A stretch of DNA of 63,183 nucleotides, the filler included, from Hausera hauseri (Eukaryota): the NCBI GenBank assembly GCA_046269625.1. It is 11 parts of 11 records of this genome, joined end to end, with 100 filler letters (N's around TTAATTAATTAA, not from the genome) between each part and the next. Parts side by side here need not be neighbours in the genome. Positions count along the whole stretch, not along the records: positions 1 to 9,691 come from JBJURY010308831.1; 10 more parts are not named here. One strand, written 5' to 3'. Both the position numbers and the translations under genes were made by a program. This document shows positions 1 through 57,117 of this stretch, one piece after another (position 1 is the first letter of the stretch; each line of letters begins with the position of its first letter). The notes below the pieces were generated by a model. It was not told the origin of the DNA and ran no database searches. It was given only the letters and a program-made list of their open reading frames with translations.

Positions 1-1470
1 ATACTACCTCGCTCGTTTTTCGTATTCATCTGGATACTTACCAATCTAAAAAATAAATAGTAAGGGTTAATCCTATGGCGAAATGTGGTTTTGAAACAAA
101 ACCAGTTCTTTGTTTGATGATAGAATAACCCGATCTGTAATTGTCAGGTTATTGTATCATAGACGTACCCTTGGGGTTTCAATACCCTTAATTCTCGTTC
201 TATGATTTTAGGACGTTTATTGTGACAATTTTTGGTGACTAATCAAAAAGTCGCAAAACATATTATAAGCACGAATGTTGACAGGCTTGCGATTATTATA
301 ATGGGCAAAGTAGTAGTTGTATCATGTCTCATGTCTTTGCTTGCATGTGTCGCTACTTGTATTTCCTTAAAGGTTTGTACTGTGAAGGTTTGACTCCGTA
401 GGTCTTTTGCATGTATATTTATTATGTATTCTGTCTTTGGTACTAATGAGTTGCATTCGGTGTGTTATGTGTCTTTCAGTAAGGTTGTTTTTATGCTTTT
501 ATACATCGTACGACAATTTATTTCGATGTCATAGTTGAGATTTTCTTCCACCGAAAATAATGTTTTACGTTGCTGTATCCAGCATTTCACAGGAATTCTA
601 AGTAACTTCCTTTTGTTCATCTTCTTTGTGGTAGTAAGCCTAACAGTGGTGCTTACTGGAACGGTCCGTCCCGTCTTCGTCGTTTCGACCGCAAATTTCC
701 AGATTTTACTGTTCGGATGATATCTTCCTAAATAAGTGCTAGACTTATTCATTCGAATTCCGTGTAGGTCAAAATGAATCCTATGTTCATAGCCTTCTGA
801 GATTTTACAACAGATCTTAAGATCTCTGTTCTTGATGCCACGATAATTGGGAATTGGGCTTAACTCCTTTATTTTGGTAAACTGGATTGAGATCTCTTGG
901 TTACTTGGCAATCTCCTTTTTGTATCTATTTGGATATATGTGTTTTTCTTATCTTCTGAAATACCAACTATGTTTTCATTCAACACCCATTTAATTGGAT
1001 CGGTTGAATGTACTATGTTGCTGAGTTCTGTTGCATTGACCCGTTCTCTGGCGGGCATTACTAATTTTACTTGCTGCCTTATCGCTCCTTGTGTGCGTTC
1101 GTATTGTGAAGATATAAGTATTCCCATAATTTATGACACAACATCCTTCTGGAGTTCCGTAAGGAAGATCGCAATGGCTCATCACTTGTTTATTCGCGTT
1201 CCATAGAACTACTTGGTATTTCACTGATTTTCTAACGGTTCCGTCCATCTTAAGTAGCACATAGTCTCGTATTGATCTAGACTTTGGAATGTGAAGCGAT
1301 CTGAGGTGCTCAAGTCGTTTCTTTTTATTCGTATCCATTCATCTTTCATCTATTCGTTTAGTTGTTCAATCAATCCTCCTTGATCCTTGGTTTTTGGCGT
1401 ATATGAAGCTATCAGTGATAGTGCTAAGACTATCTGTATGTATGATGTAGGTCAGGTAAATATAGACGAG
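1..1470 (-). pseudogene. Post-integrase type I membrane protein module (signal peptide, Cys-containing ectodomain, FN3-like domain, TM)
   Basis: Signal-like SYIQIVLALSLIASYTP near 1400-1450, ORFs 991-1338 and 465-1127, ECNSLVPKTEYIINI near 415-460, TM LPIIIIASLSTFVLIICFATF near 245-310. Homologous to 18855-20130 and 57420-58700. Confidence 0.65.
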
Positions 1471-1499
1471 GTCTTGACTTTCCTACAATTCGGTTTCTG

Positions 1500-4400
1500 G
1501 TTCGTTTTTGTATCCATTAAACGTAATTGGTGTCATCTATCTTGTCTTATTTCCGTTTTCACCACTCGTTGTATTGATACGACCTCTTCTTTCCGTTTTT
1601 ATTAATATAAACTGTAGTGGGAGTTATCCTGATAACTTTGTAAGGTTCTTTTCCAGTACGCATTAGTTTCAACGATGTGCCCTTCTTAGCTACGGGATAG
1701 TGCATATAAACCAAATCTCCGTTTCTTAAATCGTGCGGCTTTGCCTTCTTGTCGTATTGTCTTTTAAATCATTCTTGATATTCTAAGGATAGCGTCTTCG
1801 CTACCTCCCAACACTTTGTAGTCTAACTTGTAGAACGTCTGCAAAATTTGGTTCTAACTCTTCAATGTTGGTTTGATACGGAATCATTCCTAAGTCCGTC
1901 GGTAATGCTGCTTCTTGTCCATACATCATAAAAATAGTGTAAACCCTGTCGCATGGTGCGGTGTCGTACTGATGGCAAATTGGGTGCCTTCTAGGAATAA
2001 ATCCTAATTTATTTGGCCTTTTGCGACTACGGTTGATAATATTCGTCTCACAGTAGCATTCATGCGTTCAACCATTCCATTACATTGAGGGTGGTAAGCT
2101 GCCTTGGTCAACCTCTCAATTTCAAATATTTCGTGATTTTATCGAACAATTCACTGCCGAAATTTTTCCATCGATAGTATAATCAGTATCTGATCTGGAG
2201 GTCCATACATATAGATAATTTTTCTTACCACGGCTTTGGCCAACATCTCTTCCTTCTGATCATATAGTGGTACTAATTCTACGAAGTGAATTAAACGATC
2301 GACGCATGTTAGTATGTAGCTGTTATTTCTATGCGTCGTGGGTAATGGTCCTACGATCTCTATCGACATACCTTGCATTGGTATGTGTGGTACCGTTATT
2401 GGCTTCAATTCTGCTATGTAATTCTGCATTTTCTTCTGCTTAGTCGCGCATGCTTCGCAAGCGCTTACCCAATTTTTTACATCAAGATATATATATACTA
2501 GGCCAATAGTATTCGTTCAGTGCCCTATTTAATATCTTCTTCCAGGACATGTGTCCAACTAAATATGAATCGTCTTCGGCCATTAAAACTTCGGCTCGCA
2601 AAATTTTGGATATAAATATTAATTTCCTTCCTTTTCGTTCATAATACAGTACTTTTCATTATTCTTCTCATCGGAGACACAATATTTATGTCCATGTCGT
2701 TATAAATGTTTCTTTAACTGGTGTCTTTTTGGAATTACGTCTGCTTCAGCGCATTCAATGATTTGTTGGATAACCCGATCCTTCTTTTGTTCGCTTGACA
2801 TATTAATTGCTCCATCTAACGTTAAAGTTCGTTGTCGGTCTACTAACTCTTCGAGCTGATTTTTCTTCATTGTTGTAATAGCACTTTTCTTGTCTTCAAT
2901 CTTGACAATGCGTCGGCATCAACATGCTTCGAACAGGGATTATATTGGAACTAGATATTATGCCTCGATATGTTCTCAATCCATCTATTCAACCTACACG
3001 TAGGGTTATTTTCTCGTCCTTTTAAAGTTGTAACCGCTTTATGATCTGTAATTATTATTATCCTCTGTCCATATACATAGACATTGAAGTGCCTCAAGGC
3101 TTCTTTTACTGCTAACGTTTCTAATTCTATCACTGAATAGTTTTTCTCCGCTTTCTTTAGGCAGCGTCCTCCATAAGTGATTGGGCGTTCTAGTTCTTCG
3201 ACCTCGCGTTTCTGTGCCAATTCATATCCGATACTTTCTTTACTTGCGCCTGTTTTAATAATAAACGGTAAGCTAAAGTCAGGGTATCTCAGTACTGATT
3301 CGCTAGTTAGTATATTTTTCTTTTCGTCGTACGCCTTTTGTTCAACATCGGGCCATCGCCATTTTGTTCCTTTTTTAATAATCTATATAATGGCGCATTG
3401 ATTCTTGAGTTAATCGGTACGTAAGTAACATAATATCCACACAGGTCTAAGCAATGTCTCAGTTCTTTTTGGTTCTGGGGTTCCATGCAGTCTGAAATTT
3501 TGTTCAACAACGATTTGTCTGGATTCGATCCGCCCTCTCCAACTCTATGGCGAAGGTAGGATACGGCGTTCTGAGCCCATTTGCATTTCTTCGGATTCAA
3601 TTTCAATCCAGCCTGTTCTAATCTCATAAGTGTGTTTTCACTGTCCTTCAGATGCTCCTTTTCGTCTTTTGATGCAATAATTACGTCATCTACGTACAAA
3701 AACGCATGTTCGAGTCCCATTAGCATTTTATTTATCACCCTGATAAAAGTGACTGGTTCAGTGGTAATTCCAAATGACATAACGTTAAATTCGCACACTC
3801 CATCATGAGTTTTAAAAGCTGTTTTATAACGTTCTTCGTCTTCGACCTCTACCTGCCAATATCCGGATTGTAAGTCCAGAGTGGTAAACCATTTTGCTCA
3901 TGAGAGTCTGTCTAGAACCTTTTTCACAAATGGTAGGGGAAAAGAATCCTTCATCATGAGAGTATTTAATGCTCTATAATCGATACAAAATCGATGTTCC
4001 ATGGTACTTTCTTTTTGACCATAAGAATAGGTGAATACCAAGATCTGAAACTCGGCCTGATTATATCGGCCTTCAGCATTCCTTCTACTTTCTTGGTTAT
4101 CTCAGTTCTTAGTGAATGAGGTGGTGGGTACCGTTTTGGCATTTTCTGCTCTTCGAGGCCAATTTCGTCATTGGAACCAGGCTTTTTCTTAAGTGGTATA
4201 GTCAACTTTAACGCTTTAGATCGGTCAATGTCTTCTTCGTCCTTCGCGATAATTGATTTATACCGACATAATAAAATGGACAATAGATTTCTGGTGAAAA
4301 TTTAGTATCGACGTGTGGTAAAAATTTCTCTTCAACCGTTATTGTTGATACTCTGTAAGTATGCCCCAAAGTAGTGTTGGCGTATAATTTCACTGGAGTT

Positions 4401-5250
4401 TCAGTGTTATTCACCATTCTGACCGGTACTCGACCAGACGCTACTCGGGTTAATATATTGCTCAACAATATATTCGGATTTAGCCTTTCTTTCGGTTCAA
4501 AGTATAATGGTAAGTCGTCGTCTTGGCAGATTTGTGCGAATATTAACAATTCCATTCTAGGCGGAATGTTTTCGTCGACCGGAATCTATATCTCTCCGGC
4601 TCTCTTTCTTTATTAATCTTGGTTTTTTTTATCGGTCCGAGTTCGATTAATTTCGAGGCGTTTAAATCTACTGCAGCCTTCGGCAGACGTCTTAATATAT
4701 CACAGCCTAGCAGAACGTCGTCCGTTAAGTGTTCCATTATAGAAAATTTGTGCTAAAGTGTTTGTCCCATTATTTTAAGATTAAGGTTCCACTTAAATTT
4801 CGGTCTTGATTCCTGTCCGAAAGCTCCTATACTTCCGAGGTCGGTTGCTAGTGGTAATCGCAGTTGTCGTCGTAATTTTTTTGGTATTGATCCGTCCTTA
4901 AATAAACGATTTTTGTGATCCGGTATCTACTAGTGCGTATACTTCCCAGTCGTCAATACTAATTTTGGAGGAAGTCTACTTTCTTTTATCTTAGGTTGTC
5001 TAACGATGGATATCTTGTATCCATTTATACTAATTTCATGTACTTTATTCTCGGCTACTTGTCGTAATTCCTCAATGGGATATAATCCATTATTTTCGTC
5101 GTTTTCGTTATCTCTTTCCGGTGTATTGATTAGCGGTTCTCGGTTGTTTGGGTTATATAAAGATTGCATTTGTGGATTATCCCAAATTGATGATTTAGTT
5201 TCTATATTCCGTGTGATCCTTGAGGAGTATATCACTTTGTGGTCATCCAC
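1500..5250 (-). pseudogene. pol: Ty3/Gypsy pol (PR-RT-RNaseH-IN), disrupted
   Basis: Protease DTG near 4920, RT 3307-4100, RNase H 2900-3300, integrase zinc finger and core 1900-2600, C-terminal GPY-like region near 1640. Confidence 0.93.
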
Positions 5251-5325
5251 CGATTGGCGGCATTATTCAGATTTTTCCTTAATTCGGTACATTTTCCGTA
5301 ACGCCCCGTATTGCTTCATCCCTTC

Positions 5326-7436
5326 TTAAGCATCTTCATAACTAAAAGGTTTTCGATAGATTTCCGAGATATAAGGGTTAATGAATCTCTTACCGCAGAC
5401 CTCATATTGTGGTGCCGATGGGGGCAACATGGGCAAGGGCAGCTTTTGTGCCTGGTGATTGCCTATCTTGGAGACCGCGTCTCCTCCCTTAGGTTCATCA
5501 TCATCTGAATCGTCCCTTCGAAATTTTATATTTCTTTGTCTTACGAAAAATATTGGTTTTCTCTTTCGTTTCCGATTATAGTAACCAACGTATTTCTCAA
5601 CGTCGCTTTTCCATTTGTTTTCTTTGGAAGCCTTCAAAAATTTTCCAAAAGGCATTAAAATCGCCCTTAAAATTTTACAGGAAAATCTGGTTAGGGTGAA
5701 TATTTCATAGCCATTTATAACGGATTGAATTATTGCCTTTATGAGTTGCACTAAAAAATAGATAGCCAAAAATCCAGATACAGATTGTCCGAAAATTAAA
5801 AATCTTCCCCAGATTTTATATAGTATCTCTGTAGTGACTCTTTGATAATGATTAACGCCAAGTAGGGATTCCAGTTTTGCTTGATAGCAAGTGTCGTCCA
5901 TTACCGTCGACATGGCTCTATTCAATTCGTGTGTAAGTTGTCGATGAAAGGCTAGAAATTGCCTGAAAGCCTCAATTTCCTTTGGTCTGTAAATCCCTTT
6001 ACTTGCGGTGTCAGCGAACGTATCATGCGTTATACCTTTTAGCAAATTTGTCACAGTTAATTTGTGTGGCTGTTATTCCTCCATTTGGTAAACTTACCCA
6101 GTCTGTTTCAGTTCTCTTAAACATAAGTTCCCTAAACCAGCTTTGCATTCCTTCAAAATCGTTCGTTGCGTTGAATTTTTCAGTAAGACTCTTGTAAGCG
6201 GCATAGCCAATCGAGGTATGCTTTGGTATAGGACCGGCAGCTCTTGTATACAACGTTTTTTGTCCACGTTTATAGATACGTCTCGTTTTTCGTATTTGTA
6301 GGTCAAAAGAAACTCCCCAGTAACTCTTCCGAAAATACCTTTCTTCATCGGAATTACGGGTGATGCTAGTTCTGGATTTGCGTAGATTAAGGTTATTTTG
6401 GTCCTCATAATTTCTAAATCCAATGTACAACCATTCGCGATCATTTTGTGATATAATTCCGTTAGTCCGACTTGTCCTTTATAATAAAGGTAATCATCTC
6501 TATTTTTGAAATAATCTTTTATTCTTACGTCTTGAGTTACCAAAGCAAAAGTAGTTATTGCAGGTTCTTCCAAGAAGAACGCTTCATAATTGGTGGCGTA
6601 CATTACTACATTACATCGAGAAAGCATATGCTTCTTAATAAACTTTAACCCGTGATCTTCGGAGATCAGTATTGTAGGTGTGGATTGTTCGGTCACGTCC
6701 TTCCTTGACCTGGCATTATTGTCAGTTGTGTCCACATATATTTTTCCCATGGTTTCATTAAAAAAATTTTTATTTTAATAATGTTGCAATTGTTCATAGG
6801 TGGTGGAGTCAAAATAACTATAGAATTTCGAAAGGTACAGGCACCATCTTGGATGTGGCACTTCTGGTTTTCGGTATAAGTTTTTGTAACACTATGGAAC
6901 ATCACCTTTTGGTTCCTCATTTCTGTCTCATAGAAATCGACCACTGCTATTCCTCCTCCTTTTCCTTTTCCCATATCATATTTACCCCCGCTCCAGTATC
7001 CTGTGTGCATATTTAGTTTCCAAACTGCTACTTTATATACACGAATTATCTTTCCTGGTTCGGCCTCTATCTACATCCCGTCCCATTTCAATCTTCCGGT
7101 TTCTTTGGCTTGTTTACACTGTTGTCGATCCGAATCCAAAGGAATTAGGCGAGTCGTTGGTTTTACGATCGATGAATGTCAGTGCATGTTCCCACAGTGA
7201 AAAATACTTCGTGATCGTCTAAACATGCACTCTATTCCGTCTATTGCGATTATTTCATGTTGCTGATATAGAAAATACTTTTTCTCAATGGTCACTAACT
7301 TGTGAGGTCTGGCGTCCTCACATAATTCCAGATCCATCAGGGAATATTTCTGACCTATTTTAAACTTATCACAGTCATATACCGTGATCGCACCAAGTTG
7401 CCTTATTAACATCATAAATGTTATTAGTTTGACCAT
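5326..7436 (-). pseudogene. Chuvirus-like glycoprotein (env-like), frameshifted
   Basis: Signal ...MMLIRQLGA/ITVYDC, SLMDLELC, IFHCGNMH and C-terminal WGRFLIFGQSVSGFLAIYFLVQLIKAIIQSVINGY match the recalled chuvirus glycoprotein pattern (GYDC..SLLDV..C, HCGMHSH, WGKFL.FG..SAG..GI). Confidence 0.82.
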
Positions 7437-7439
7437 CCA

Positions 7440-9691
7440 ATTTGATTTGCTATCTCGTACTGAGTTGGTATTAAATTTCTTACCACATCTTCAATTCTAG
7501 TGGCTGACCTGTTTTCATCGTCGTCAAATAGTTTGGACCAATTTATTTCTTTCGGTATTTTCCAAGCAGCTTTCATGATCAATCCAATAACTCTATTGAA
7601 TTCATTTTCCCGTAAGAGATTTGTTTTTATCGCTAATTACAATATCACTTTCCTCAATTCTTCCTTAGTATTCTCTAGCATAATTTTCTCACTTAAGACT
7701 CCATCGGGTAAGGTACTTTTATTCATTTTGAATCGAAATGTTCTCATCATTCTTGCAGCGTCATAAATTGCCTTTAGTTTTCATTTAATATGTCATTCCT
7801 TGGTCATGAAAAATTCACTATTTTTATGGGGTTTCTCAGCAACTCGTTTAATTCTTCACTATCTGAATTAATCGCTTGCATTGACAACTGTCTTAGTTCT
7901 CGGATTAGAGTCGCGTTATGGTCAACTTCATCTCTTACTTTTCTTGACCTCCAAAATGGTCGTTTCTGTTTCGGCACAGTGGGTATCGCTTCGCTAACCG
8001 GTACCAAATTCCTATCATATTGTTCCTTATCTCCTTCACTTTGTAGGAAGTCAAAATACATGACAGAGTCTAGAATCCCTATAACGCGTCCTACGCAATG
8101 TTCCTCTTTGGCTTTCATTATGGCTTCGAATTTGGTTTGTTCATCGGTGATTATAGCCACTATTTTATTTTATTCCTCTGGAATATTTCCAACATCTATT
8201 AGTAATTCGGGTTCATGTAGTATCCTGCCTCGGAAGTATAACCAATAATTTACTTTGTTCTTACCATTATTTTGCACTATCCACTGTTTGACTTCTCTAA
8301 GTGATGTTACTGTTGTACATTCAGTTTCAGTCTCTTCCATCCATTCCGCTGATATTTTTACCTTTGTTGTTATTTCGTGTTTAGCTCTCAAGAAATCGGC
8401 GTATTTCTTTATCAATAGTCTGGGTACTAAACTATGAACGGTATTTTCACTTCACAGCTTAGTTAATGTAGGAATCAATTGCCTTAGTTTGTTTTCTGTC
8501 ATATTTACATTAATTTGCTCTATTAATTCGTTCTGGGCCAGTGCGGGATCTAAGAGCATTTCCATATTGAATCGTCGATCCACTGGAAGGATATCCATTT
8601 GTTGAAGTTGGATGGATGTTTCTGGGTTTTGGTTTTACACATCGTCCAAATAAGCAACCCATACTGGATCGTCTGCAACGTCTGGAAATCCATAATCTAA
8701 TAATGCCGTGGACACGCTTCGTACATTTTCGCTGATCTCGCTTAATCTCGTCTGTATCTCCTTCATTAAATTGGTTCGAAACTTTACCCCGTTTCCGCAC
8801 GCGACTTGTATCGTTTTTAATGTCGGTCCTAATTCATCTGCAGGGAGCAGTACTTTTCTTTCGTAATCCGTTAAATCGGTAGTTACGTCCGCTAGCCATC
8901 TTTGTACAAATTCCCTTCTATTCTTTATTTCAGATCGCATGAACTTATATTTATTCCTATAAATCTCCCATTCTTCGTCTAATTCATTTAACTTCGTAGC
9001 TCTTTGCTTTGTGCGGATTCTCAGTTCTTCTCTATCTCTAACTTGAGTCGTCAATTGTCGTGCCTGGTCGTCATCTATCTCTGCCATTGTCTATAGCAAT
9101 GATATTAGTCCCTGCATTTCCTTTAGAGTTTTTGAATCTGGATCTATTTCTTCGATCAGTCTCTTTATGAATTTGGCCTCATCCGGTGTGACGTGGCAGT
9201 CTTTCATTATTTCTATCAGTTCAGCATGTCAATTCTGGTCGGTATCCGATGCCCACTCAAAACGACGATGTAGAAATTTTAATACTTCTTCTAACGCGAT
9301 CCGATGGTTTGGACAAATGTCCAGCGTTGTTAAATCACATATCGATATTTCATCTATGGGTCTTGTTGTCAAGTGTCGTACACCTTCTAGGCGAACACCT
9401 TTTAGTCTCATCGATAAGGAGGAGGTATTTTCCTGTTTCGCTAATAATTCCATTCCTTCGATCGTCGCATACAATTCTTCTTTGAGTTTTATTTCCTAAT
9501 TTTTGCTCATAAAGTTTAATGTCGATAATGCGTTAAATTCAACCCGAAGGTTTGTCTCTGTTTTAAAAGCATCTAGATGCGGAGTATTTCTTTTAACTAT
9601 TGTTTGTTTATTGGTTCACATTCTGAGTATTTTCTTAGACGATATTTCGTTAAATCTGCTACTCTATCTAGTAGTTCGATCCATTCTTTAA
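7440..9691 (-). pseudogene. Region X of the element polyprotein (unknown, helical, internal ubiquitin-like domain)
   Basis: ORF pieces 9229-9474, 8635-9087, 8170-8415 and 7804-8160 align with 11200-13100 and 14600-16100. Confidence 0.7.
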
Positions 9692-9791: not shown

Positions 9792-9817
9792 ACGCGATAG
9801 CACCAAAACGAAGTGAT

Positions 9818-12800
9818 ATGACACGGAAAAAGAGTGTTCCAACAGGTAATAAATCTGAAAAACCAGGCACCTCGACAGAAGTCGACTTAGACGCAGCGCC
9901 TGAGTTTACGGTTGAAAAAGTAGCTAAGTCTACTGATGACGATACAGCAGAAAAAGAATTCATGGAGCCATTAATACTTAAAATTAAAAAAAATAGAGGA
10001 CGTAGCCCTTCCTTAAAAACGAAGCGTAGAAGTCGCTCACACTGCAAAGTAACTAGAGAGAAAATTGAAGAAACAGAAAATTCAAACATCGTTGTAGAAG
10101 GCGACGTGGACTATAGTTTGAATGCACCAGAGATTGGTTCACTCACTCCTGTCGGGGTAGCGGAGTCTATAGAGTCAATCAATGAAATTAACGAGATTTG
10201 CCCACTTTCCATTAGTGAGGAAGAAGCGGAGAATACTGATAATTTCGATCCAAAGAAATGGAAAGTTCGACGTTCGTGGAAAAATGCCGATGAATTAAAG
10301 AAAATGAGAATTAGATGTAATGATCCTGAGATATCGCAGCAAGATTTAGAAAGGCTTAAACAGATTGTCGAACAGGTCGATATATCCGGAAAGGAACAAC
10401 AGTACGTTGAGAGGTTATGAAGAAGTTTGAAACTATGTATGAAGGAAAACTCGTCGAAGCGATCAACTTGAGACAACCTATAGAAGTGTCACTTGAGACC
10501 TTATTAAAATGGAATGGATGAAATTCGCGGTGCAATGATTAATCGGCTTAGGGAAATACCGGTTAGTAGTAGATGTAATGTCAATTTGGAAATATTGGGT
10601 ATAGACTCAGTGAATATTCCTCCCCTGATGGAGTGATAAAAATCGCATTTGCTGTATCCAAATAATATACAAACCTGGAGAATCGGATCAAAATAGAAAA
10701 TAAAAAGCGAGCACAGATTTATAGCTTGAAAAACCGGATTATGTCTCCAAACAACGAAGAAACCAAATACGCAGTAAAGGCTTGTATCGCAGAATTGGAT
10801 GAATATAAGGACGAGTTTAGTTATGCCGGCCGAATTATGAAATTCCTAAGAGGACCAGATGATGAGTTGAAAGATGCATATAAGATGTTAGATAAGGCTA
10901 TAATGGCAAAGCCAATAATCGCAAATCAATTGTCGGAATGGTCTGAATTACTAATGCGATTAAGCAAATTAGTGGAAAACCGAAAGAAAGAATTTCCAGA
11001 AAGCGAACCTTCCGTGAAGAAACAGTTAGAAGAAAGCGCACGTAATTTAGAGACAATGCTAGCAGAAATAGATATCCGAACGCGATTAGAAGCATTACGG
11101 CGACTCAAATTCATGAAAAAGAAACAAGAAGCAGCGATACTAGAAGAGATCTATAAAATAGTCGAAGAGACGAATTTTACAAAAAAGCGGAATATGACTT
11201 GCAATTTTTACCCTAGATTAAGAACGATCCGACTATAAGGAGTTCAACATTTAACAGATAAACCTATAGACCAGATTTCCGCTCAAGATATTGAAACCCT
11301 AGACATTTGTCCGGAACACCGAGCCGCTTTGACAGACGCAATAAAATTTTTGCACAAACCGCAAGAATGGATGGCCGAAACGGATCAGAATTTTCATACC
11401 GAGTTGACAAAGATAATAAATGATCAACATCTCAATTTGCAGGAACCTAAGTTCATAAAGAAATTGTTGGATGCAGTGGACCCCGACTCAAAGTCATAAA
11501 TGAAATGTATGGGTGGAAATTGACGACGAGAATATGAGGCAATTAATGCCAAAATTAGAGAAAGAAGAAACATGCATCAGAACAAAGCAAAGAGCAATAA
11601 GGCTTGATGAACTGGCGAAAGAATTCGAAATCTACAGAAACAAATATGCTTTTACGGAATCAGAAATCAAAAATAAGCGGAATTCGTACAAAGGTGATAA
11701 AGAGATGTGATTATCGAACTAACCGATTAACACCAAAAAAGACTCATCAATTCTAATGAATTAGGCAAATTATTAAAAATGATTCAATATGCTTGTGGAA
11801 AGGGAATAGGTTTCCGAACTACGCAGATAAAGGAAATGCAATCCAGGCTAAAAGAAATTCGAGAAAATATGCAAAGAACAAGTGTAGCCTTAGTAAGCGC
11901 TGGACTCCCAGATGTCGGAAATGAGCCGGAATGGAATGCATACTTCGATGCGATACTTTCCGAAAAACCCGTGACTCTAGTGCAACTAAATGAAATAGAA
12001 ACGTGTCCGCAGAACAGGAGATTCAATGTGGAGGTGCTTCTGGATTCAGCGCTAACTGAAAAAGATTTAATCGAACTAATTAATGTAAACATTACCGAAA
12101 GTAAATTAAGACAACTTATTTTGACATTAACTAAATTATCTAGTGAGAATGCGATTTATAGCACGGTGCCGAAACTTTTAATAAGGAAATACGCCATAAT
12201 CTTAAGGGCTAAACCTGAAGTAGCGATAAAGGTAATAATATCATAGTAGTGGATGGACGAAAAAGAATGTGAATTAACTACATACTCCTATGTGAGGGAC
12301 GTAAGAGAATAGTTATTAAATAATGGCGACCTAGAACAATTAATAGATGTCGGAATTATTCCCGACGAAACAAATCGATTAGTAACCATAATAGCTAACG
12401 AACAGACAAAAGAGGAAACCACGCGTAAGGCTAAGACAGAGCAATGCGTAGGGCAAATTATGGGAGTCCGAGACGCCACAATGTACTTCGATTATTTACA
12501 AACAAATGAAGATAAGGAACAATACGATATAAACTTAGTACCACTGAGCGAAGTAACGACAAAAGGCCCAAAGGCGAAACGTCCGGTTGGTAGGCCGAAA
12601 AAGACGCAAGAGGAAATTGAATATAATGGAGAACTAATTAAGGAACTAAGGCAGATATCGATTCCGACCCTCAGTACAAACAACGAGGAATTAAGCGAGT
12701 TAATGAAGACTTTAATACGATTTGCAACTTATTCGAGCCTTCGAGGTGATGTATTAGATGATAAAGAAAAGATAATTTTCGACGCAGCTAGAATGATGAG

Positions 12801-13110
12801 AAGTTCACGTTTTAAACTATAGAAAAGTAACTTAACCGATGAATCGATTATCAAAAGGATCATGATGGAGAACACCCATGAGGAATTGAGAAAAGTATTA
12901 CTATATTTAGCTATTAAAATAAACCCTAATCGAGAGAACGAAATCAATAGAGCCATAAGTCTAGCCCGAAAATCGGCAAGAAGATTGCACTGTGAAGTAA
13001 ATTGGTCAAGACTGTTTGACAAGGAAGAAGACAGAAGAAACAATAGTAAACTCGGCGATATATTACGGAATTTGACAACGGCGGATGTTGGGTGCCGGAA
13101 GAATGAATCA
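9818..13110 (+). pseudogene. Region X (about 1100 codons, coiled-coil-rich, partly deleted UBL, AT-hook)
   Basis: ORFs 9818-10420, 10726-11238, 11513-11710, 11779-12246, 12460-12822 and 12862-13332, mostly separated by single stops or frameshifts. KRPVGRPKK at 12577-12603. Confidence 0.7.
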
Positions 13111-14310
13111 AATTGGTTAATTAGCTTACTCATTTTGATGATGCTAATAAAGCATATAGGCGCCGTTACCGTATACGATTGCGATAGATTCAAATTAGGA
13201 CAGAAATATTCTTTGATGGATCTAGAAGCATGCAAGGATGCCAGGCCGCACAAGTTGGAAACAAGAGAGAAAAGTTATGTTTCGTATCAACAACAGGAAC
13301 TGATTTCTTTGGATGGGTGGAATGTATGTTGAGACGATCTGGTAGTATTTTCCACTGTGGACTAATGCACGGACATTCTTATATAATCAAACCAACTACT
13401 CTTCCGATACCAATGAACGTGGAGCGCCAGCACTGCAAGCAAGCTAAGGAGACCGGAAGATTGAAATGGGATAGTATGGAATTAGAAATGCAACCCGGAA
13501 AGATAATTAGAGCATATGAAGTAGTGGTAGGAAGGTTAGATATGCATAACGGACACTGTAGTAAAGCCGAATACGATACTGGTAAAGGATTAGAAGCAAA
13601 TATAGTAGTCTTGGATTTCTACGAATCGGAGATGCGATTACGGAAGGTAATGTTCCATAACGTCACTAAATTATACACTGAGAACCAAAAATGCCATTTA
13701 CAAGACGGAACCTGTGCTTTTAGAAGTTCTGTTATAATATGGGAACCTCCCTCTGGAAGAAGTTGTAACATTATTAAAATTAAAGAACTGAAGTTTAATG
13801 AAACTACTGGAAAACGATATGTGGTTAAATCGGATACCAACTCAAGGCCACGCGAAGACGTATCAGAACATCCTACGCCCACTATACTAATCTTGGATCA
13901 ACATGGATTGAAATTTATTAAAAAGGAGATGATCTCTCTTTGCGACGTAGTAATGTTTGCTACTAATTATGAAGCATTTGTCGTTGCAGAAACGGAAATA
14001 AGTGCAAAAACCTACAAACTAGAAACGCAGGATGTCAGAATTAAGAACTATCTGAAAAATAGAGATGATTACTTCTATTATAAGGGATAAGTCGGAATAA
14101 CGGAACTATATCACAAAATGATAGTGAATGACTGCAAATTAGACACCGAAATCATTAGAACTAAAATGGCTCTTATATATGCAAACCCAGAATTAACTTC
14201 TCCAATAATTCCTATGAGGGAATTTTCGGTCGGGTTACGGGCGAATTATTTCTAACATATGATTGCGAGAAGAGAGATGTACCCATCAACGTGGAAGAAA
14301 AACGTTGCTA
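13111..14310 (+). pseudogene. Chuvirus-like glycoprotein, N-terminal part
   Basis: NWLISLLILMMLIKHIGA/VTVYDCDRFKLGQKYSLMDLEAC, then IFHCGLMHGHS, CHLQDGTC, SCNIIK, YLKNRDDYFYYKG. Confidence 0.82.
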
Positions 14311-14510
14311 TTGTGATCGGCCGTCCAATTGATCTTAAAATTATCGGAAAAAAGTAAAATAAGATCAGGTTTAACCTGCATTTTTGGGCGCATGAAAATC
14401 GACTTGGATANNNNNNNNNNNNNNNNNNNNNNNNNNNNNNNNNNNNNNNNNNNNTTAATTAATTAANNNNNNNNNNNNNNNNNNNNNNNNNNNNNNNNNN
14501 NNNNNNNNNN

Positions 14511-17500
14511 TCATAATCGTAGACGGTAATACCACTTATATGCTTTATTAGCATCATCAAAGTAAGTAAGCTAATCAAACAATTAGATTCGCTTTTCCTG
14601 TTACTATTATCCGTCGTTTTCACATTATGTAGCATATTTTCGATTCTACTGCTATTTTCGGACCGTTTGTCTTCTTCCTTATCGAATAGTCTCAACCAAT
14701 TTACTTCGCAGGGTAGCTTTCATGCCACTCTTCGTGCTAAGCTGGTAGCTCTATTAATTTCATTCTCTCATTAATCCCGGACTCCCATGATTTGTCCTAC
14801 ACATTGTTCTGTCTTGGCCTCACGGGTAGCTTCTTATTTAGTCTGTTCATTGGCTGCTACTACCACGATACAATTTGTTTCGTCGGGGGTGATTCCGACA
14901 TCTATTAACTGTTCTAGATCGTCCAGTATCCTACCTCTGAAATAGAATCTATGGTTTAGTTCTTTCATTCCACCATTGTTTATCAACCATTCTCTTACAT
15001 CTCTCATGTAAAAATACGTGGTTAACTTACATTCTTTTTCATCCATCCACTGGAATGACATTTTTACTTCCATCGTTACTTCGGATCTAGCCCTCAAGGT
15101 CTTAGAGTATTTCCTTATTAAAAGTTTCGGCACCACGCTATAAATTGTGTTCTCACTAGATAATTTAGTCAAAGTCGGAATGAGTTGTCTTAATTTACTT
15201 TCGGCAATGTTTACATTAATGAGTTCAATTAAATCTCCTGTTTTGCAGACACGGTTCCAATTTATTTAACTGTACCGGAGTCACAAGATTCTCGGCTGTT
15301 ATTGCATCTAAATACGCGTCCCATTTCGGTCATTTCCAACGTCTGGAAGCCCATAGTCTGTCAACGTTGTGTTGAGTCTGCACACGTTTTCTCGGATTTC
15401 TTTTAATCTTTGTTGTATTTCTCTTATCTGCATAGTTCGAAAGCCTAATCCGTTTCCACGGGCATACTGAATCATTTTCAATAGTTCGCCTAATTTATTA
15501 AAATGGATGAGTCTCTTCTGATGATAATCAGTTAGTTCCATAATAATATCTTCTTGCCACCTTTGTACAAATTCACACTTATTTTTGATTTTGGACTCGG
15601 TAAAAGCATATTTGTTTCTATAAATTTAGAGCGCTTTGGTTAATTCGTCTAACCTTGTTGCTCTTTGTTTGGTTCTAATGCACTTCTCTTTGGCCCATCG
15701 TATTTGAGGCATCAGTTGTCTCATCTTCTCATTACTAATTTCTGTCATTTCTACTGAGATAAAAGCTAACTCGTACATCTCATTAATGATTTTGAGTCGG
15801 GGTCTATCGCATTGAGAAATTTCTTTACGAACTTAACTTCTTCAAAACTAAGATGAGGGTCGTATCTTATTTTTGTCAACTCGGTATGACAGTTCGGATC
15901 TGTTCCGGCCATACATTCTTGCGGTTTATGTATGAATCTCATTGCTTCTTCTATAACCGTTTTATGTTTTGGACAAATATCTAAAGTTGCGATGTCCGCG
16001 ATGGAAATTTCGTCGGTAGATTAACTATTAACTGTTGGATTCCCTCTAGGCGAACGTTCCTCAATCTTTGATAAAAATTTCAAGTCATATTCCGCTTTTC
16101 TGTGAAGCTTTTTTCTTCGATCACCTTATATATCTCCTCGAATATCACCACTTCTTGCTTCTTCATAAAATTTAATTATCCTAATGCTTAGAACTGAGTC
16201 AGGATATCTATTTTCGCTTGAATTGTATCTAAGTTATGTGCAATTTCTTCTAATTGTTTCTTTATAGAAGGCTCACTTTCTGAAAATTCTCTCTTACCGT
16301 ATTCCACTAATTTACTTAATCTCGCAACTAATTCTGACCAGTCATGCAGTTGATTCGCCATTACAGGTTTTGCCAATATGGCCTGTCTAGCATTTTATAA
16401 GCATCATTTAATTCATCATCTGGATCTTTCATGAAACTCATAATCCGGGTGATATAACTGAACTCATACTTATACTCGTCGAATTCTGTGATACAAGCTT
16501 TTATTACATATTTGGTTTCTTCGTTATTCATAAAAATAATTCGATTTCTCAAGCTACCAATTTGTGATCTCTTTTCTTTCTCCATTTTAATACGATCCTC
16601 TAAATTCGTATATTGCCTAGGCACAGCGAAGCAATTTTTATCATTTTCATAAAAGAGTAATGTCTACTGGGTCTATATCCAGTATTTCCAAATCGATATC
16701 ACTTCGATTGCTAACCGGTTTTTCTCTAAATCGATTAATCATTGCACATCGAATTTCATCCATCATGCATTCTAAATTACGGACTACTCTCTTTATTTTG
16801 GGATTAGTTTCTAGTTTAAATAATAACGTTTGAGCCTCGGCTACTTTCACATCAACAGTATCTTCGCTTTTACTCCACCCTTCCGAGAATTCGACTCCAA
16901 TTTTAATCCATGTTTCTAATTCACGTTTCCATTTTGTTAACGTTCCGGCTGGTACCTATTCAGGTTGTTCTAAGTCGATTGTTTCATAGAGCTTTCCTTC
17001 ACTGTATAATTTTAAACTTTTATATAATCTCTCAGCAAATTTTTGTTCTTTACCGGATATATCTACTTGTTCGCTAATCTCCATAAGTCTTTCTAAATTC
17101 CGCTGTAATGTTCATTTTCTTTAATTCATTGGTGTTTTGCCATGAACGTCGGATTTTCCATTTTTTGGATCAAAATCATCAATATTTCCCGTTTCTTCTT
17201 TACTAGTGGGAAGTGGGCAGACCTTGTTAATATCGTTAACCGACTCTGCAGATTCTTTTATCTCAGTATGTGTAAATTGACCTATTTCTGGTGTATTTAA
17301 GCTAGGCTCTACGTCGCTCTCTACACCGATGTTCGTATCTTTGGTTTCTTTTATTTTCTTTTTATTTATTTGCATTTGTAAACCACTTCTACGTTTCGTT
17401 TTCAATGGAGGGCTACGGCCCCTGTTTCTCGTGATTTTAAGTATTAATGGTTCCATAAATTCCTTTTCTGCTACCTCATCTTCAGTAATCTTGTCTACTT

Positions 17501-17740
17501 TTCCTATCGTGAACTCAGGCTCTGCATCTAAGTCGACTTCTATCGAAGTTCATGGTTTATCTGCTGTTCTATTAGTCGTCGGAACACTCTTTTTCCGTGT
17601 CATATCGATTCGCTTGGATGCTATCGCATACTCATATTCAGTTTTTGGTTCTGCTAAATCATGATACTCTTCTAATAACCTTAATCTATCTGCGTATTTT
17701 TAGACATCAAAATTTGTGGGTTAGTACTCTCAGGCTGAGC
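14511..17740 (-). pseudogene. Region X plus glycoprotein signal peptide, with a deletion of roughly 450 bp near 14772
   Basis: Homologous to 9818-13180. UBL-like segment in ORF 14834-15172. MGVRD joins directly to ENEINRA, unlike G2. Confidence 0.7.
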
Positions 17741-17752
17741 GTCTAGAAATTT

Positions 17753-18660
17753 TCACAAATTTTGTATGTCGATAATAGTACTTGTGTCTTCATGATCACC
17801 ATACTTTACTTCCAAGATTTCCTTCACTTTAATCATAGTAGTCTTATTAGGCTCTGTAAATGAAACGCTGAACGGATTCGGACATAACCGTGCAATGCTT
17901 TCTTCTCTACTGCAGGCAAAACGAACACAATTTCCATTTCTGCCGACTCTTTGCCGACCGTCTTCATTCACAGGTGATTTGGACCTATTTGTGCTTCTAT
18001 TGTCCTGGTTCGACAACCCTTGCGTAATATCTACATTTCGACTATCCTCGTAACGATTTCGATAGTTCAAACCTTTATAACTATTTGGATTCGACTTATT
18101 CGTATTTTGATTGCTGGCGTAATTATTATTTCGGCTATTCCTGTAGTCGTTATTATTATTCCTATTCTCATAATTTCTATATCCATTAAATCGTCTATCA
18201 TCCCTTCCGCGATTATCATTTCGATTCTAATCGCCATGATCGTCGCGATTATTATTTCTATTATTTCTATCATTGTATCTGGTATACTTATCGAGTGCCA
18301 TTTCTAAGTCTTTGGCCAAAAGCAGAGTTTTCTCGAAATTCTCAGGTCTGGCCAAAATCAATTCTTTAACTAAATCTCGGGACCAAATGCCATTAATTAA
18401 TTGATTCGTAATCATGACATCTAGATCTGGCGGGGTTGCCTTCTCCGCAGCATCACGCTCTGCATCTGATTTAGCTTTTGCTACATTAGCTATCCTCAAG
18501 GTGCTTACATAACTAATAGTGAGTTTCCTTAATGCAAATGCAAACTGGGTTACGAATTTCCCCTTCTGTTGCACCCTATTCAGAAATGTTATAAGTTTCT
18601 GTTGTGGCGTTGCAGTTGGCAATAATTTATGGTTCAATGCTCCTACCAAGGCGGACCAAG
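17753..18660 (-). pseudogene. gag: Gypsy Gag (capsid region, Arg/Asn-rich linker, degenerate CCHC knuckle)
   Basis: TWSALVGALNHKLLP..RVQQKGKFVTQFAFALRKL..NQLINGI..LILARPENFEKTLLLAKDLE, an R/N/D-rich tract, then RFACSREESIARLC (worn CX2CX4HX4C). Confidence 0.75.
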
Positions 18661-18854
18661 TGAGGAGGAATTCAGGAAGCCAATATAAAGTGAGGAAATT
18701 CATAAGAGGAGGAAAATAAGGTTCATTTACTGATTGAATTGAGTGAAATGTTATNNNNNNNNNNNNNNNNNNNNNNNNNNNNNNNNNNNNNNNNNNNNTT
18801 AATTAATTAANNNNNNNNNNNNNNNNNNNNNNNNNNNNNNNNNNNNNNNNNNNN

Positions 18855-20130
18855 ATGACAACGTTGTTCATTTAGTCAATTTTTCCGTTTTAACGGTAGT
18901 CATAATCTCATCCTTCGTTTTCTCGTTGGTTAATGGCTTTGTCAATACAATATCATTTAACGTTCGTACCGTAAACGTTCTACTTTGTTTGTTCTTGGCG
19001 TTCATCTGTATTATGTAGTCTGTTTTGGGTTTTAAACCAATACATTTGAATCGATGACTGCCTTTAACCAATATTAATTTCTGATTATCGCATAATGTTC
19101 AGCAGCTTATTTCTAGGTCGTAGTTAAGTGTTTCCTCCACAATGAAGGTTATTTCGCACTGTTGTGCCTAATATTTTAATGGAATTGTTTCTAGCTCCTT
19201 TTGAGGTACTCCCTTTGTTTTTATGAATTTGGTGAAAGTTGAAATAGTTTTATTCATTTTCGCAGTCGTAATTTTGTTGGTTGTTGTTTCAAATGGAATT
19301 CCTAACATCTGATTTTCCAATTGATAAATTCCTAAGAAAATACTTGACTGGCTTGGTCGCACTTCATATAAGTCTAATCGAATTCTATATTTGTGTCCCT
19401 GAGTAACTTGCAACAGTTATTCGGTCATTCAGTGTCGATTTGACAGTATTGCTGGTTATAAACTGCTTTGTCTTCTTTCAGGAATTGAACCGTTATTACT
19501 CGTCCTTTAATCAACCGTCCCTTTGTATTTATTTGGATAAAATTATCTTTTAGATTTTCCATTATACTCGCTACGTTTTCTTCTAACATCCGTTTCAATG
19601 GATCGATAGAATGGAGCATATCTTCTAACTCTATACTGAGGTAATCTCCATACGTTTGTGGTATAACTAAGTGTGAATTCAGATTTAATTCAGAGCGTAC
19701 TTCATTACATTTCGGTAAATATGCACGATAGATGAGTGCGTAGGAATTTCAATATTTTACACTGCAACAAACTGTATCGTCTTCTGGTTCGAATTCGCAA
19801 TCAGACTCGGCTCGGCTTAATAGGTCATGAAATAGTATTTGAATTTGCCCTTCATATAGTCCTGGTAACCTAAATCCAACAAATGGGATTTCTGGCGAAA
19901 AATAATCTAATTTTATTGCTCGTAAAAATTTCTCGTCCTTTTTTTCAGTTTTATGTTGGGGAGTTCCCTCCTTTTGTGACGGTGGTTTCAATCCGGCTTT
20001 CCTGATTCCATATATATCGCTCAACGAATTTTCATCTACCCACCATTGGGCGTTAGACTTAGGCGTTAAGGTGGCAATCAACGATAAAGCTACTATTATT
20101 TGTGCATAAGATACTGGTCTAGCAATAATC
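18855..20130 (-). pseudogene. Post-integrase secreted or membrane module with FN3-like domain
   Basis: ORF 19749-20306 runs from the integrase tail in frame into PVSYAQIIVALSLIATLTPKSNA. FKCIGLKPKTDYIIQM (L-x-P-x-T-x-Y) near 19000-19050. Confidence 0.65.
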
Positions 20131-20139
20131 GACAATGTC

Positions 20140-23100
20140 TTGTTTTCGCGAGGTCTTAGGTTGTATGGTTTAGCTGGTATTATATCGGTTTTGACCACTC
20201 TTTGGATTGATACGACTTCTTCCTTTCCATTTTTATTAACATACACTGTGGTCGGCGTTGTGCGGATGATTTCATATGGTTCTCTTCCGGTACGTGTCAA
20301 TTTCAAAGATGCACCTTTCTTTGCGACTGGGTAATGTATATAAACCCAATTACCTTTTTCTAGATCATGAGGTTTAGTCTTTTTGTCATATTGTTTTTTA
20401 AATTGTTCTTGTTATTCTAGTGATAATGTTTTTGCCACTTCCCAACACTTTAGCAATCTTGTCTGTAAGACTTCGGCAAAGTTCTGCTCTAAATCCTCGA
20501 AATTCTTTTCGTACGGTGTCATGCCTAAATCTGTGGGTAAGATGGCCTCTCGTTCATACATCATAAAGAAAGGTGTAAATCCTGTTGCTGGAAGTTGAGT
20601 TGTATTAATTGCAAACTGCGTTCCTTCTAGGAATGCATCCGAATCCTTTCGGTCTTTTGCCAGTACTGTTGGTAGTATGCGAATGACTGTCGTGTTCATT
20701 CGTTCGACCATCCCATTACACTGTGGGTGGTATGCGGTAGTAGTTAAACGTTCAATTTCGAATATCTTGATAATTTTTTCGAATAATTTGCTTGTGAAGT
20801 TCCTGCCTCTATCCGTTAAACTTTGTTCTGGTGGTCAGTATCTGCAGATAATTTTTCTTACTACTGCGTCGGCTAATGTTTCCGCTTTTTGATCCAATAG
20901 TGCCACCAATTCGACAAAATGCGTCAATCGATCCACGCATGTTAGAATGTATCTGTTGTTTTTATGAGTTTTAGGTAAAGGTCCTACTATATCCATAGAC
21001 ATAGCTTGCATGAGCCTATCTGGTACGTTTATGAGTTTTAATTCTGCTACGTAGCCTTTCGTTTTCTTTTGTTTTGTAACGCAAACTTTGCACGTTCCTA
21101 CCCAATTCTTTATATCGATATAGACACTTGGTCAGAAATATTTGTTTAATATCCTTTCCAATGTCTTCTTCCAAGACATATGTTCGGCTAAGTATGAATC
21201 GTGTTCTGCCATGAGTACTTCGATGCGCAATCCTTTTGGAATAACTATCAGTCTTTTTCTTTTCACTCGTAATATACTATATTATCTTAATTTGATGCAT
21301 TATATTTAATTCCGTGTTTCTGTAGATTTTTTTTCAGTTGTTGTCCTTTGGACATTTTGTTGTTTTGTACGAACTGGATAATTTGCTGAATAACCGTGTC
21401 TTTAGCCTGCTCGGCAGTAATTCTAATCGTCTTCCCCGATATTAGAGTTCTTTGTCGTTCAATTAACTGTTAAAGTTGTGGCTTTTTCATTATGGTGATA
21501 GCACTAGTTTTTTTCTTTAACCTTGACAGTGCGTCAGTGTCGACGCGTTTATTACCCGGTTTATATTGGAATTCAATGTTATATCGCGAGATTTCCTCAA
21601 TCCAACTGTTTAATCTACATGTTGCGTTATTAGCTCGTCCTTTCAATGTTGTAACTGCTTTTTGATCAGTTATTGTAATAATCTTTTGTCCATAGACAGA
21701 CATTAAAATATCCTAGGGCTTTTTTACGGCTAACGTTTCTAATTCGGTAACCGAATAATTCTTTTCTTCTTTCTTTAGTGAGCGTCCTCCATATGCTATT
21801 GCATGTTTTAATTCTTCATCTTCTTGTTTCTGAGCTAATTCGTATCCTATGCCTTCTTTACTTGCATCTGTTTTAATGATGAATAGTAGGTTAAAATCTG
21901 GGTATCTTAAAACTGGTTCACTTGGCAAAACTTTCTTCATTTTGTCGAATGCTTTTTGTTCCACTTCTATCCATCTCCACTTAGTTCCTTTTTTGAGTAG
22001 GCAATATAGTGATGCCTTAATTTTTGAAATGTCTGGTACGTAAGTGGCATAGTACCCACATAGGCTTAATCAATGTCTTAATTCTTTTTGGTTCTGCGGT
22101 TCCATGCAATCGGATATTTTATTTAGTAGAGATTTGTCCGGTTTTGATCCTCCTTCTCCTGCTATGTGTCCGAGGTACGATACTGCATTTTGTGCCCATT
22201 TGCATTTCTTTGGACTCAGTTTCAGCCCTGCTTGTTCTAGCCGCATAAGTGTATCCTCAGTGTCCTTTAAGTGTTCTTCCTCCGTTCTTGATGCTATTAT
22301 CACGTCGTCTAAGTACGCGAATTCATGATCGAGTCCCATGAGCATCTTATTCATCATTCTAATAAAAATAGCTGGTCCTGTGGTGAAGCCGAAAGGCATA
22401 ACATTAAATTCGTATACGCCATCGTGTGTTTTGAACGCTATCTTATATCAATCTTCTTCTTCGATTTCCACTTGCCAGTATCCCGATTGTAAATCAAGAG
22501 TGGTGAACCATTTTGCTCCCGATAGTATGTCAAAGCTTCCTTTACTGACGGTAGGGGGAACGAGTCCTTTATAATCAGTGTGTTTAATGCGCGATAATCT
22601 ATACAAAACCAATGCTTCGTGGTTTCTTTCTTCTTAACCGTAAGTATAGGTACGTACCACGATCGATAACTTGGTCGAATTATGTAGGCATTTAACATTC
22701 ACTCTACTTCTTTAGTTATCTCCAGTCTAAATGAGTGAGGAGGCGGACACCACTTGGGCATTTTCTGTTCTTCTAGGTCGATTTCGTCATTTGATTGAGG
22801 TTTCTTCCTCAATGGAATTGTTAATCTTAGAGCCTTTGCTCTACCTATGTCCTCTTCATCTTGCGTTATTATCGAACGGAATTTACACAATAATTCGTAG
22901 AATTTGCAATACACTTAAGGAGAGAATTTAGTTTCAACATGAGGTGGAAATTCGGCACACTTGTATAGTTTCTCCTCTATTGTCACTGCCTATAATCTAC
23001 AAGTGTGGCCTAAAATAGTGTTAGCGTGTAATCTTACGGGGATTGGTGCATTGTTTATTAATCTAATAGGAATTCGTCCCGTCACTATTCTACATAAAAT

Positions 23101-23899
23101 AATGCTAAACATAAGATTTGTACCGATATTCTCTTGAGGCTCGAAATATACTGGCAGATCCTCGTCCTGTTGAATCTGTGCGAAAATTATTATTTTGGTT
23201 CTAGGCGGAATGTCTTCATCTACCATAATCCATACTTCGCCCGATTTCCTTTCTTTTATTACCTTTGTCCCTTTTATTGGTTTGAGTTCAATTAATTTCC
23301 CGTTATGCACATCAATTGCCATACCCGGTATCTGTTTTAGTATATCACAACCTAGTACTACATCGTCTGTTAACTGGTCCATTATTGCAAATTCGTGTTG
23401 AAGTGCTTGGCCCATCATATGAACAGTAGGAGTCCATTTAATATTTCGGCTTCGATACTTGCCCAAATGCTCCTACACTACCTGGGTCCGACGATGCGGG
23501 TGGACATAGTTGGTCTCGCAATGTGGTCGGTATAGATTTATATTTTACAAATGATTTTTCTAATCCTGTGTCGACTAATGCATACACTTCCCAATCTTCG
23601 ATGTGTATTTTAGCGAAGGGTCTCCCTTTTGCTACTGTTCCGCAGCAATTTGACACTATCTTGGACCGTTTTATAGTAGAGACTCTGTGTCCGTTTATTG
23701 TTATTTCTGGCGATGACATGATATCTTGCCTTAATTGTCTTAATTCTCCATTCGAATACAAGTCGTTATTTGTTATTTCAGTAACGCGACTGTCAATAAG
23801 CGGTTCCTGGGGTAATGAACTTGAAATTAAACACAGTTTTGGGTTCTCCCAGATCGCTGATTTTATTCTATGTGACGCGGTATGTTTTTTTGAGTACAA
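20140..23899 (-). pseudogene. pol: Ty3/Gypsy pol, disrupted
   Basis: EVYALVDTG, FCIDYRALN, MPFGFTTGPAIF..YLDD, TDASKEGIG..NYSVTELETLAV, YHPQCNGMVERMN. Confidence 0.93.
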
Positions 23900-23940
23900 T
23901 ATTCCGTGGTCGTTTTCGTTTGGCCCTTAGTGAATAACAT

Positions 23941-46852: not shown

Positions 46853-46928
46853 TTTCTTTAATACTCCGTATTGTTTTGTTCCTTCATAAGGGTCTTCATA
46901 GCTGAAAGTTTTACGATGAGTTTCCGAT

Positions 46929-50702: not shown

Positions 50703-50722
50703 GAATCCACCCGATAAAATAC

Positions 50723-55252: not shown

Positions 55253-55350
55253 TAAAGGACTGTGGTAATGACCATGTAATTGATGGATTATGGACACATA
55301 AAATTAAAAATATCGAGAATGATACTGAAGAATATAAGAAACTCATATGG

Positions 55351-57084: not shown

Positions 57085-57117
57085 GGACCTACCAGAGATA
57101 AAAAAGTTTGGAATAGA

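Follow-up and report, generated by a model that had tools for sequence, protein, structure and literature searches.

A predicted FN3-fold membrane protein encoded directly after integrase in a Ty3/gypsy element family of Hausera hauseri

Results

Organization of the element family

We analyzed a window of 63,183 nucleotides from Hausera hauseri, in which short contigs are joined through N44-TTAATTAATTAA-N44 spacers. Five contigs (1-9691, 9792-14410, 14511-18754, 18855-25215 and 44172-48269) belong to one decayed family sharing 65-78% DNA identity. Overlaps among these contigs gave the order gag-like region, ORF X, env, protease (PR), reverse transcriptase (RT), RNase H, integrase (IN) and a module encoding a putative membrane protein. 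The pol order PR-RT-RNaseH-IN, with a Ty3-like RT, is that of Ty3/gypsy (Metaviridae) elements. The module was found in two contigs, G1 (1-9691) and G4 (18855-25215), both read on the minus strand.

In G1, RT and RNase H are located at 2954-3897 (minus strand; Pfam RVT_1, E = 8.9e-25; RT_RNaseH_2, E = 3.4e-28), and the closest PDB sequence match of the RT was 4ol8, followed by Ty3 Gag-Pol (7q5b). The G1 integrase (1533-2516, minus strand), directly upstream of the module, is broken and matched Pfam rve and Integrase_H2C2 weakly, and the G4 integrase (20415-21200) matched both strongly. The env gene of G1 (5329-7400, minus strand; 5' bound approximate) lies upstream of pol and encodes a class III-type (chuvirus/gB-like) protein matching PF24664 (Monjiviricetes_fusion; E = 4e-18 and 5.5e-12). 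PF24664 exceeded the cut-off in three contigs, namely G1 and those at 13188 and 46932, and env of G4 was assigned through its 65% identity to that of G1. Further, env was upstream of PR/RT in all three contigs containing both. As judged from these family matches, the element possesses a class III-type fusogen placed before pol.

The interval between gag and env is occupied by ORF X, which has approximately 1000 codons and is kept in three copies (7600-9690 in G1, minus strand; 9792-13100, plus strand; 14511-17630, minus strand). The only Pfam signal in ORF X was a weak ubiquitin-like segment, seen in two of the copies (E = 0.034 and 0.014). The gag-like region (18754-17756) was assigned by eye, had no Pfam match and is joined to env only via overlapping homologous contigs. 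No Rfam match was obtained.

The window also contains pieces of a second, unrelated gypsy-type family (31686-32327, 25436-26354, 37698-38989 and 50678-52440) without A-rich bias, comprising an integrase recognized by Pfam and gag- and protease-like segments. Host-like fragments are present at 27641-29125, 36192-37001, 39852-40352 and 49149-49829 (RRM, class C GPCR (7tm_3), Ints3-like, TBP-like and proteasome/cyclosome repeat (PC_rep)). Among these, the class C GPCR, Ints3-like and PC_rep ORFs are indicative of an animal genome. Two plus-strand segments without a Pfam match presumably resemble the Walker B region of a Polinton-type packaging ATPase (40652-41059) and a possible minor capsid fragment (43360-43818).

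Anatomy of the module

The module encodes, in order, a signal-like segment, two Cys-Cys beta domains (A and B), a Thr-rich linker, a predicted FN3 domain (F), a stalk, a transmembrane (TM) helix and a short YxxI tail. Both copies are broken, and their translations were read with X at the breaks. G1 carries point stops at 1454, 1352, 467 and 245 plus two frameshifts. The G4 copy (18855-20150, minus strand), whose contig ends at 18855 before the TM, carries point stops plus one frameshift, in B near 19405; its parts are the signal-like segment (20150-20046), A (approximately 19940-19660), B (19637-19300) and FN3 (19200-18958).

The signal-peptide-like segment of G1 (1380-1484, minus strand, as are all G1 parts below) lies beyond the C-terminal end of integrase, shares the frame of its final residues and holds a point stop at 1454-1452. 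Hydropathy placed its hydrophobic core at 1439-1407 and that of G4 at 20105-20067. The two segments are 59% identical over 34 codons, in agreement with the preliminary description, in which a conserved signal-like segment continued past the integrase of G1 and G4.

Domain A of G1 (1066-1326; C-x9-CC...Y) lies in a shifted frame between the two frameshifts and aligned with domain A of G4 (z = 5.9; 0/1000 shuffles reached this score). Domain B (700-1031) aligned with that of G4, and the model of a relative, P0008, indicated a beta-sandwich; B is probably a divergent FN3 domain. Domains A and B are related to each other (hhalign, E = 8.6e-5). Thus, the CC-containing domain described previously is present, but there are two of them rather than one, and the first is frame-shifted in G1.

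The Thr-rich linker (612-699) was recognized from the translation and its S/T content and corresponds to a region of low pLDDT in P0008. Domain F (369-611) is membrane-proximal, aligned with that of G4, has its fold assigned from P0008, and contains the motif C-x2-L-x-P-x-T-x-Y at 455-426 and a point stop at 467-465. Note that L-x-P-x-T-x-Y is the tyrosine-corner motif of FN3 domains. Across the six frames of the window, the strict motif occurred twice (455 and 19044), both times inside the module, as had been noted for G1 and G4, and relaxing the T added only 58435. The second beta-rich domain that had been set apart from this motif is the same domain.

A Thr-rich stalk and the TM helix follow (243-368), identified by hydropathy and by alignment with the TMs of the relatives P0008 and P0009. 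The TM (approximately 308-245; hydropathy 2.65), with a point stop at 245-243, was found after the motif where it had been reported. The basic cytoplasmic tail (144-242) comprises approximately 30 residues with a juxtamembrane Cys and a terminal Y-x-x-I-T, followed by a stop.

Relatives of the module protein

A profile search of 1,835,955,588 protein representatives yielded five matches, none of which was fused to Pol. Two are stop-free true relatives: P0008 (479 aa, E = 9.5e-48) has the complete module anatomy, and P0009 (189 aa) comprises FN3, TM and tail. The others, P0010-P0012, are generic repeat proteins, read as FN3-like in two cases and as Ig-like in one, and were not kept. P0008, known from a single ENA contig of 4939 nt, begins with a Met of its own and contains no integrase sequence. 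The Y-x-x-I-T ending, the juxtamembrane Cys and the basic stretch are shared by all three complete tails of the close family (G1, P0008 and P0009); in viral glycoproteins, a juxtamembrane Cys and a terminal Tyr motif have roles in palmitoylation and sorting. The cysteines of the ectodomain are conserved in the family alignment. L-x-P-x-T-x-Y is exact in G1, G4 and P0008, and L-x-P-x3-Y is present in P0009 and in a third homologue described below.

Other sequence searches returned little. Pfam fn3 (PF00041) did not reach the 25 bits of its gathering threshold (best score 13 bits, E = 0.12, P0009), and none was detected at E 0.1 in G1, G4 or P0004. The strand-B Trp that is usual in FN3 domains is absent from the FN3 domain of the module. 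The word-indexed protein search with the family alignment recovered P0008 itself alone among 4541 candidates, the PDB sequence search with module profiles gave nothing significant (best Tie2, E = 0.15), NCBIfam and PHROGs gave nothing above cut-off, and a GTDB scan with P0008 gave 84 pattern matches, none of which was confirmed. Profile, word-indexed and PDB searches found no sequence relative among host receptors. The possibility that the module is a second fusogen was ruled out by the lack of a match to any fusion-protein family.

Conservation and selection

The modules of G1 and G4 aligned significantly in BLASTP (37% identity over 154 aa, E = 4e-30; 37% over 78 aa, E = 1e-12), and the scores of domains A, B and F exceeded those of 1000/1000 shuffles, so that the mutual similarity expected from the preliminary description was obtained. 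G1/G4 identity was approximately 45% in the module compared with 65% in env, 68% in IN and 82% in RT.

The pN/pS of the module was 0.44 (bootstrap 0.36-0.55; 213 aligned codons of the signal-like segment, B and F; pS saturated), which is conservative because decay after insertion inflates pN. Domain A was excluded because it aligned poorly (19% identity). By part, pN/pS was 0.32 in the signal-like segment, 0.52 in B and 0.41 in F, and elsewhere in the element it was 0.10 in RT, 0.26 in integrase and 0.28 in env. The module is under purifying selection, including domains B and F of the ectodomain. Its faster divergence would fit host-facing proteins.

Predicted fold

The fold was predicted using AlphaFold2 on P0008, a relative of G1 rather than G1 itself, from a shallow alignment of 8 rows (mean pLDDT 55, pTM 0.26). 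The model has a signal helix, three ordered beta regions (residues about 70-140, 180-260 and 320-400) and a TM helix. The membrane-proximal domain (residues 321-400; block pLDDT 61-79) consists of seven strands and matched fibronectin repeat 6 (6msv; Z = 11.0, rmsd 1.8 Å, 76 residues), IL-22R1 (Z = 10.4), Tie2 (Z = 9.9, rmsd 2.2, 81 residues) and IFNAR2 (Z = 9.8). FN3-containing proteins accounted for 46 among the 50 fold matches listed for P0008, by title or recall. Further, at E <= 0.001 Foldseek returned 241 PDB matches, with gp130 FnIII and fibronectin at the top (E = 2.5e-7). The weak sequence signals of Pfam fn3 (E = 0.12) and Tie2 (E = 0.15) point the same way. The beta-sandwich anticipated earlier is therefore matched in this model by an FN3 fold, and domain F of the module is predicted to be a seven-strand FN3 beta-sandwich. 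The fold matches were tied across unrelated FN3 proteins, so that no donor receptor can be named.

Domain B aligned as the second FN3 in multi-domain fold matches, and domain A of P0008 was modelled incompletely, as five strands plus one helix. When A or B was compared with F by profile alignment, the result was non-significant (E = 0.64 and 0.19); thus, the reading of the ectodomain as three FN3 domains lacks support from sequence. A viral fold library returned only generic multi-beta-sandwich proteins with TM-scores < 0.35, and no homology to gD, gH or gL was seen among the viral fold matches listed.

We also considered that the module is a neutral captured passenger or that its motif is a chance match. 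Both copies are broken, and even the best Pfam fn3 score (P0009, E 0.12) is below the cut-off, as such an account would predict, but pN/pS below 1, stop-free relatives, confinement of the motif to the module and the fold match all contradict it. The account is largely refuted by the stop-free relatives and pN/pS, and we regard it as highly improbable.

A third homologue in another contig

The preliminary description listed 57420-58700 for alignment with the two copies. The region does encode a remote homologue (57421-59026, plus strand), with a signal-like segment (57421), one CC domain (57766), an FN3-like motif (58435) and a TM (58633), but its domain set is different and it is not beside an integrase. 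The ORF (57085-59025) is intact and has an extra Cys-rich beta region and a long tail cut by the contig end. When profiles were built without it, its CC domain scored 19.5 bits against 7.8 for the best shuffle and its FN3 motif a marginal 9.1 bits against 8.7 (0/1000 in each case), and it was the top non-self match in the window for both profiles. The CC domain was modelled as a beta-sandwich (block pLDDT 58-80) and the FN3-like part with low confidence. This CC domain (B) matched a CD45 FN3 domain with Z = 7.3, with Ig-like and C2 domains tied at 7.6, which leaves FN3, Ig and C2 folds undistinguished for B. Foldseek on the low-confidence model was dominated by beta-galactosidase and was set aside as uninformative. 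The word-indexed protein search confirmed 0/2318 candidates, and the ESM Atlas gave only leads below 0.9 (FN3 and cytokine-receptor clusters, 0.79-0.80; the top match was hypothetical).

The contig of this homologue (53336-59026) is nearly all coding on the plus strand and A-rich like the element. No env, pol or other retroelement Pfam domain was found in its six frames, and comparison with 297 ORF segments of the other contigs gave no clear homology (best E = 4e-4, weak and in multiple pieces). One in-frame stop separates the FN3-type ORF from a 625-aa ORF (55207-57081) that had no match in any library tried, including 0/3657 word-indexed candidates and none in the ESM Atlas. The contig is probably part of another virus-like element. 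Its region 53336-54534 (plus strand) consists of repeated small units comprising a TM, a basic stretch, a PPxY motif (53689 and 53968) and a signal-like segment, which resemble a chain of tiny membrane proteins.

Position in the element and mode of expression

The module lies directly after the integrase in both copies that reach that far; the contig 44172-48269 stops earlier. In both, it is in frame and 11-22 codons from the integrase end despite a length difference of 33 nt. No LTRs, PBS or PPT were found in the contigs, which end within or just past the coding region, and the 143 nt past the G1 stop contain no LTR, repeat match or purine tract. Since these short contigs show no LTR, the placement of the module inside the element is based on position, frame and composition. 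Third-position A is 0.38-0.43 in the module and element genes versus 0.24-0.33 in five host-like ORFs; the gag ORF, at 0.28, lacks this bias, which makes composition a weak marker of membership.

The lack of visible LTR boundaries in these 143 nt and the third homologue without an adjacent pol would suit a host gene, a domesticated gene or a second mobile element lying alongside. We consider this improbable, because two copies whose synonymous sites are saturated keep the module in frame within 11-22 codons of the integrase, and because the module decays like the rest of the element, shows no sign of introns and shares its base composition. The module is best explained as a long-standing accessory gene of a Ty3/gypsy element with GAG-ENV-POL order.

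In G4, a single open frame of 220 codons (19752-20411, minus strand) runs from the C-terminal region of integrase through the signal-like segment into domain A. Similarly, ORF X stays open across a hydrophobic segment and into the beginning of env, which was assigned by reading (12823-13329), and in two copies (23944-24690 and 46169-46936) overlapping open frames connect the env tail with the protease. Three junctions (ORF X/env, env-tail/protease and integrase/module) are thus each crossed by an open frame in one or more copies, and the frame changes at the one instance of the gag/ORF X junction. These frames suggest a polyprotein that would be inserted into the ER twice and leave Pol looping through the cytosol in between. 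The module would form the C-terminal part of the Env-Pol polyprotein, its internal signal peptide re-entering the ER after integrase, and signal peptidase would free the protein; in some relatives its own AUG may be used instead. Because P0008 has its own Met and, in G1, an in-frame stop occurs at 1535 and an ATG at 1517, a separate module ORF is possible. Atlas virus provides a precedent for a Pol-glycoprotein polyprotein, as described in the available text (PMC9094657).

Such a topology might itself be the main function, the second signal and TM tethering the Pol end to the membrane for packaging of Pol, which ORF X and Env separate from Gag, with the ectodomain secondary. That conservation is highest in the signal-like segment (59%, pN/pS 0.32), which is in frame with integrase in G4, speaks for this idea; selection on the ectodomain as well (B 0.52, F 0.41), its conserved cysteines and the apparently unfused P0008 speak against it, and we think it improbable.

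Discussion

Alignment, selection, intact relatives and structure prediction bear out the proposal of a separate FN3-fold type I surface protein besides the class III-type fusogen. We tentatively read it, with a probability a little short of even, as a second glycoprotein of type I that is responsible for cell binding, with fusion left to Env. The modelled FN3 array, the Thr-rich spacers, the short sorting tail and the lack of an enzyme domain appear built for extracellular binding. The protein would present up to three FN3-type domains on Thr-rich spacers above one TM and a tyrosine sorting-type tail. The YxxI tail may route it together with Env to budding sites, and the ectodomain, on particles or at cell-cell contacts, would bind a target-cell surface molecule, with fusion by the class III Env. 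Attachment is favored because the module is retained beside a class III fusogen, is probably co-synthesized with Env and Pol, and diverges faster. Counting against it, many class III fusogens (for example VSV G and GP64) act alone, and the remote homologue sits in a contig without an env or pol domain. Further, the gB-type elements catalogued in the available text of PMC13524379 have three ORFs only, which also counts against attachment.

Close behind attachment, although on its own less likely than not, is a host-modulating accessory role. The protein would be displayed on the producing cell, where it would mimic a receptor or serve as a decoy, exclude superinfection or down-regulate receptors, and it would take no part in entry. 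The fold is one that cytokine receptors, receptor kinases and receptor phosphatases also have, but the fold matches are tied across unrelated FN3 proteins and no host-receptor sequence relative was found. The tail has a Tyr motif of the endocytosis type, the module diverges fast and the homologue in the contig 53336-59026 sits among small membrane ORF units; against this, in-frame coupling to Pol would link output to that of particle proteins. A wider form of the attachment reading, which we regard as doubtful, is that this lineage of large Gypsy retroviruses makes a polyprotein entering the ER twice, with the class III fusogen ahead of Pol and a host-derived FN3 adhesin behind it, that this adhesin serves as the gD/gH-like attachment or trigger partner supposedly missing from gB-type retroelements, and that it has been exchanged with the virus-like element of 53336-59026.

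The module is a concrete candidate for the attachment or tropism of gB-type Ty3/gypsy elements, and with P0008 an intact natural relative is at hand in which binding can be tested. If the attachment reading is true, LTR elements reach the gene content of complex viruses by capturing a cellular FN3 scaffold. Screens for three ORFs would miss such a module.

The module shares its fold with FN3 receptors (CD45, Tie2, gp130, IL-22R1 and fibronectin repeats), and its type I topology with Thr-rich spacers is also that of FN3 cell-surface receptors. It differs from them in having only 3-21% identity in structural alignments, no signalling domain and no specific donor.

Elements with env before pol, accessory ORFs of LTR elements and Bel/Pao elements with two glycoproteins are already known. 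Some nematode endogenous retroviruses (ERVs) are reportedly one continuous ORF with extra captured genes, and their extra ORFs are said to specify a helicase or a small hypothetical protein rather than any surface protein. As far as the source in which they are cited describes them, these non-canonical ERVs (Sacco et al., 2022, as cited in PMC13524379) share env before pol with the present element, whose extra gene encodes a surface protein.

GAG-ENV-POL Ty3/gypsy "errantiviruses" of HSV/gB type occur in Nematoda, Bryozoa and Platyhelminthes (Chary and Hayashi, PMC13524379). According to the available text, they resemble this element in having a Ty3/gypsy pol with a class III-type env upstream, and this element differs in the extra ORF X of approximately 1000 codons between gag and env and in the second membrane protein after integrase. 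The terms fibronectin, FN3, immunoglobulin and accessory do not occur in the main text of that paper as available, which states that its search did not extend to other ORF arrangements. Its section 11 states that HSV gB requires gD, gH and gL, and the entry of gB-type elements is left unexplained there because herpes gB needs partner glycoproteins (PMC13524379). Herpesvirus gB with gD/gH/gL is comparable to our system only as a working model, in which attachment or triggering falls to proteins distinct from the class III fusogen, in the terms of that text.

Extra genes, some with TMs, are present as accessory ORF3s of bdelloid LTR elements (PMC5408684) and as sORF2 of the Drosophila MDG1 group (PMC11952523); in the text available these are Env alternatives or enzymes, and none is FN3 or beside a full fusogen. 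Troyka (PMC12440569), which has no envelope in the available description, was considered and set aside as irrelevant. A literature search, with most subscription papers and Repbase outside its scope, found no report of an FN3 membrane protein in LTR retrotransposons.

Atlas virus and related Bel/Pao elements encode a single polyprotein with GN- and GC-like glycoproteins after Pol, GN being of the receptor-binding type in phleboviruses (PMC9094657). Atlas virus, as presented in the available text, is a Bel/Pao element with a class II fusogen, and both its glycoproteins form one phlebovirus-like cassette (PMC9094657). In contrast, the present element is a Gypsy element in which two proteins flank Pol, the second with a predicted fold of the cellular receptor type.
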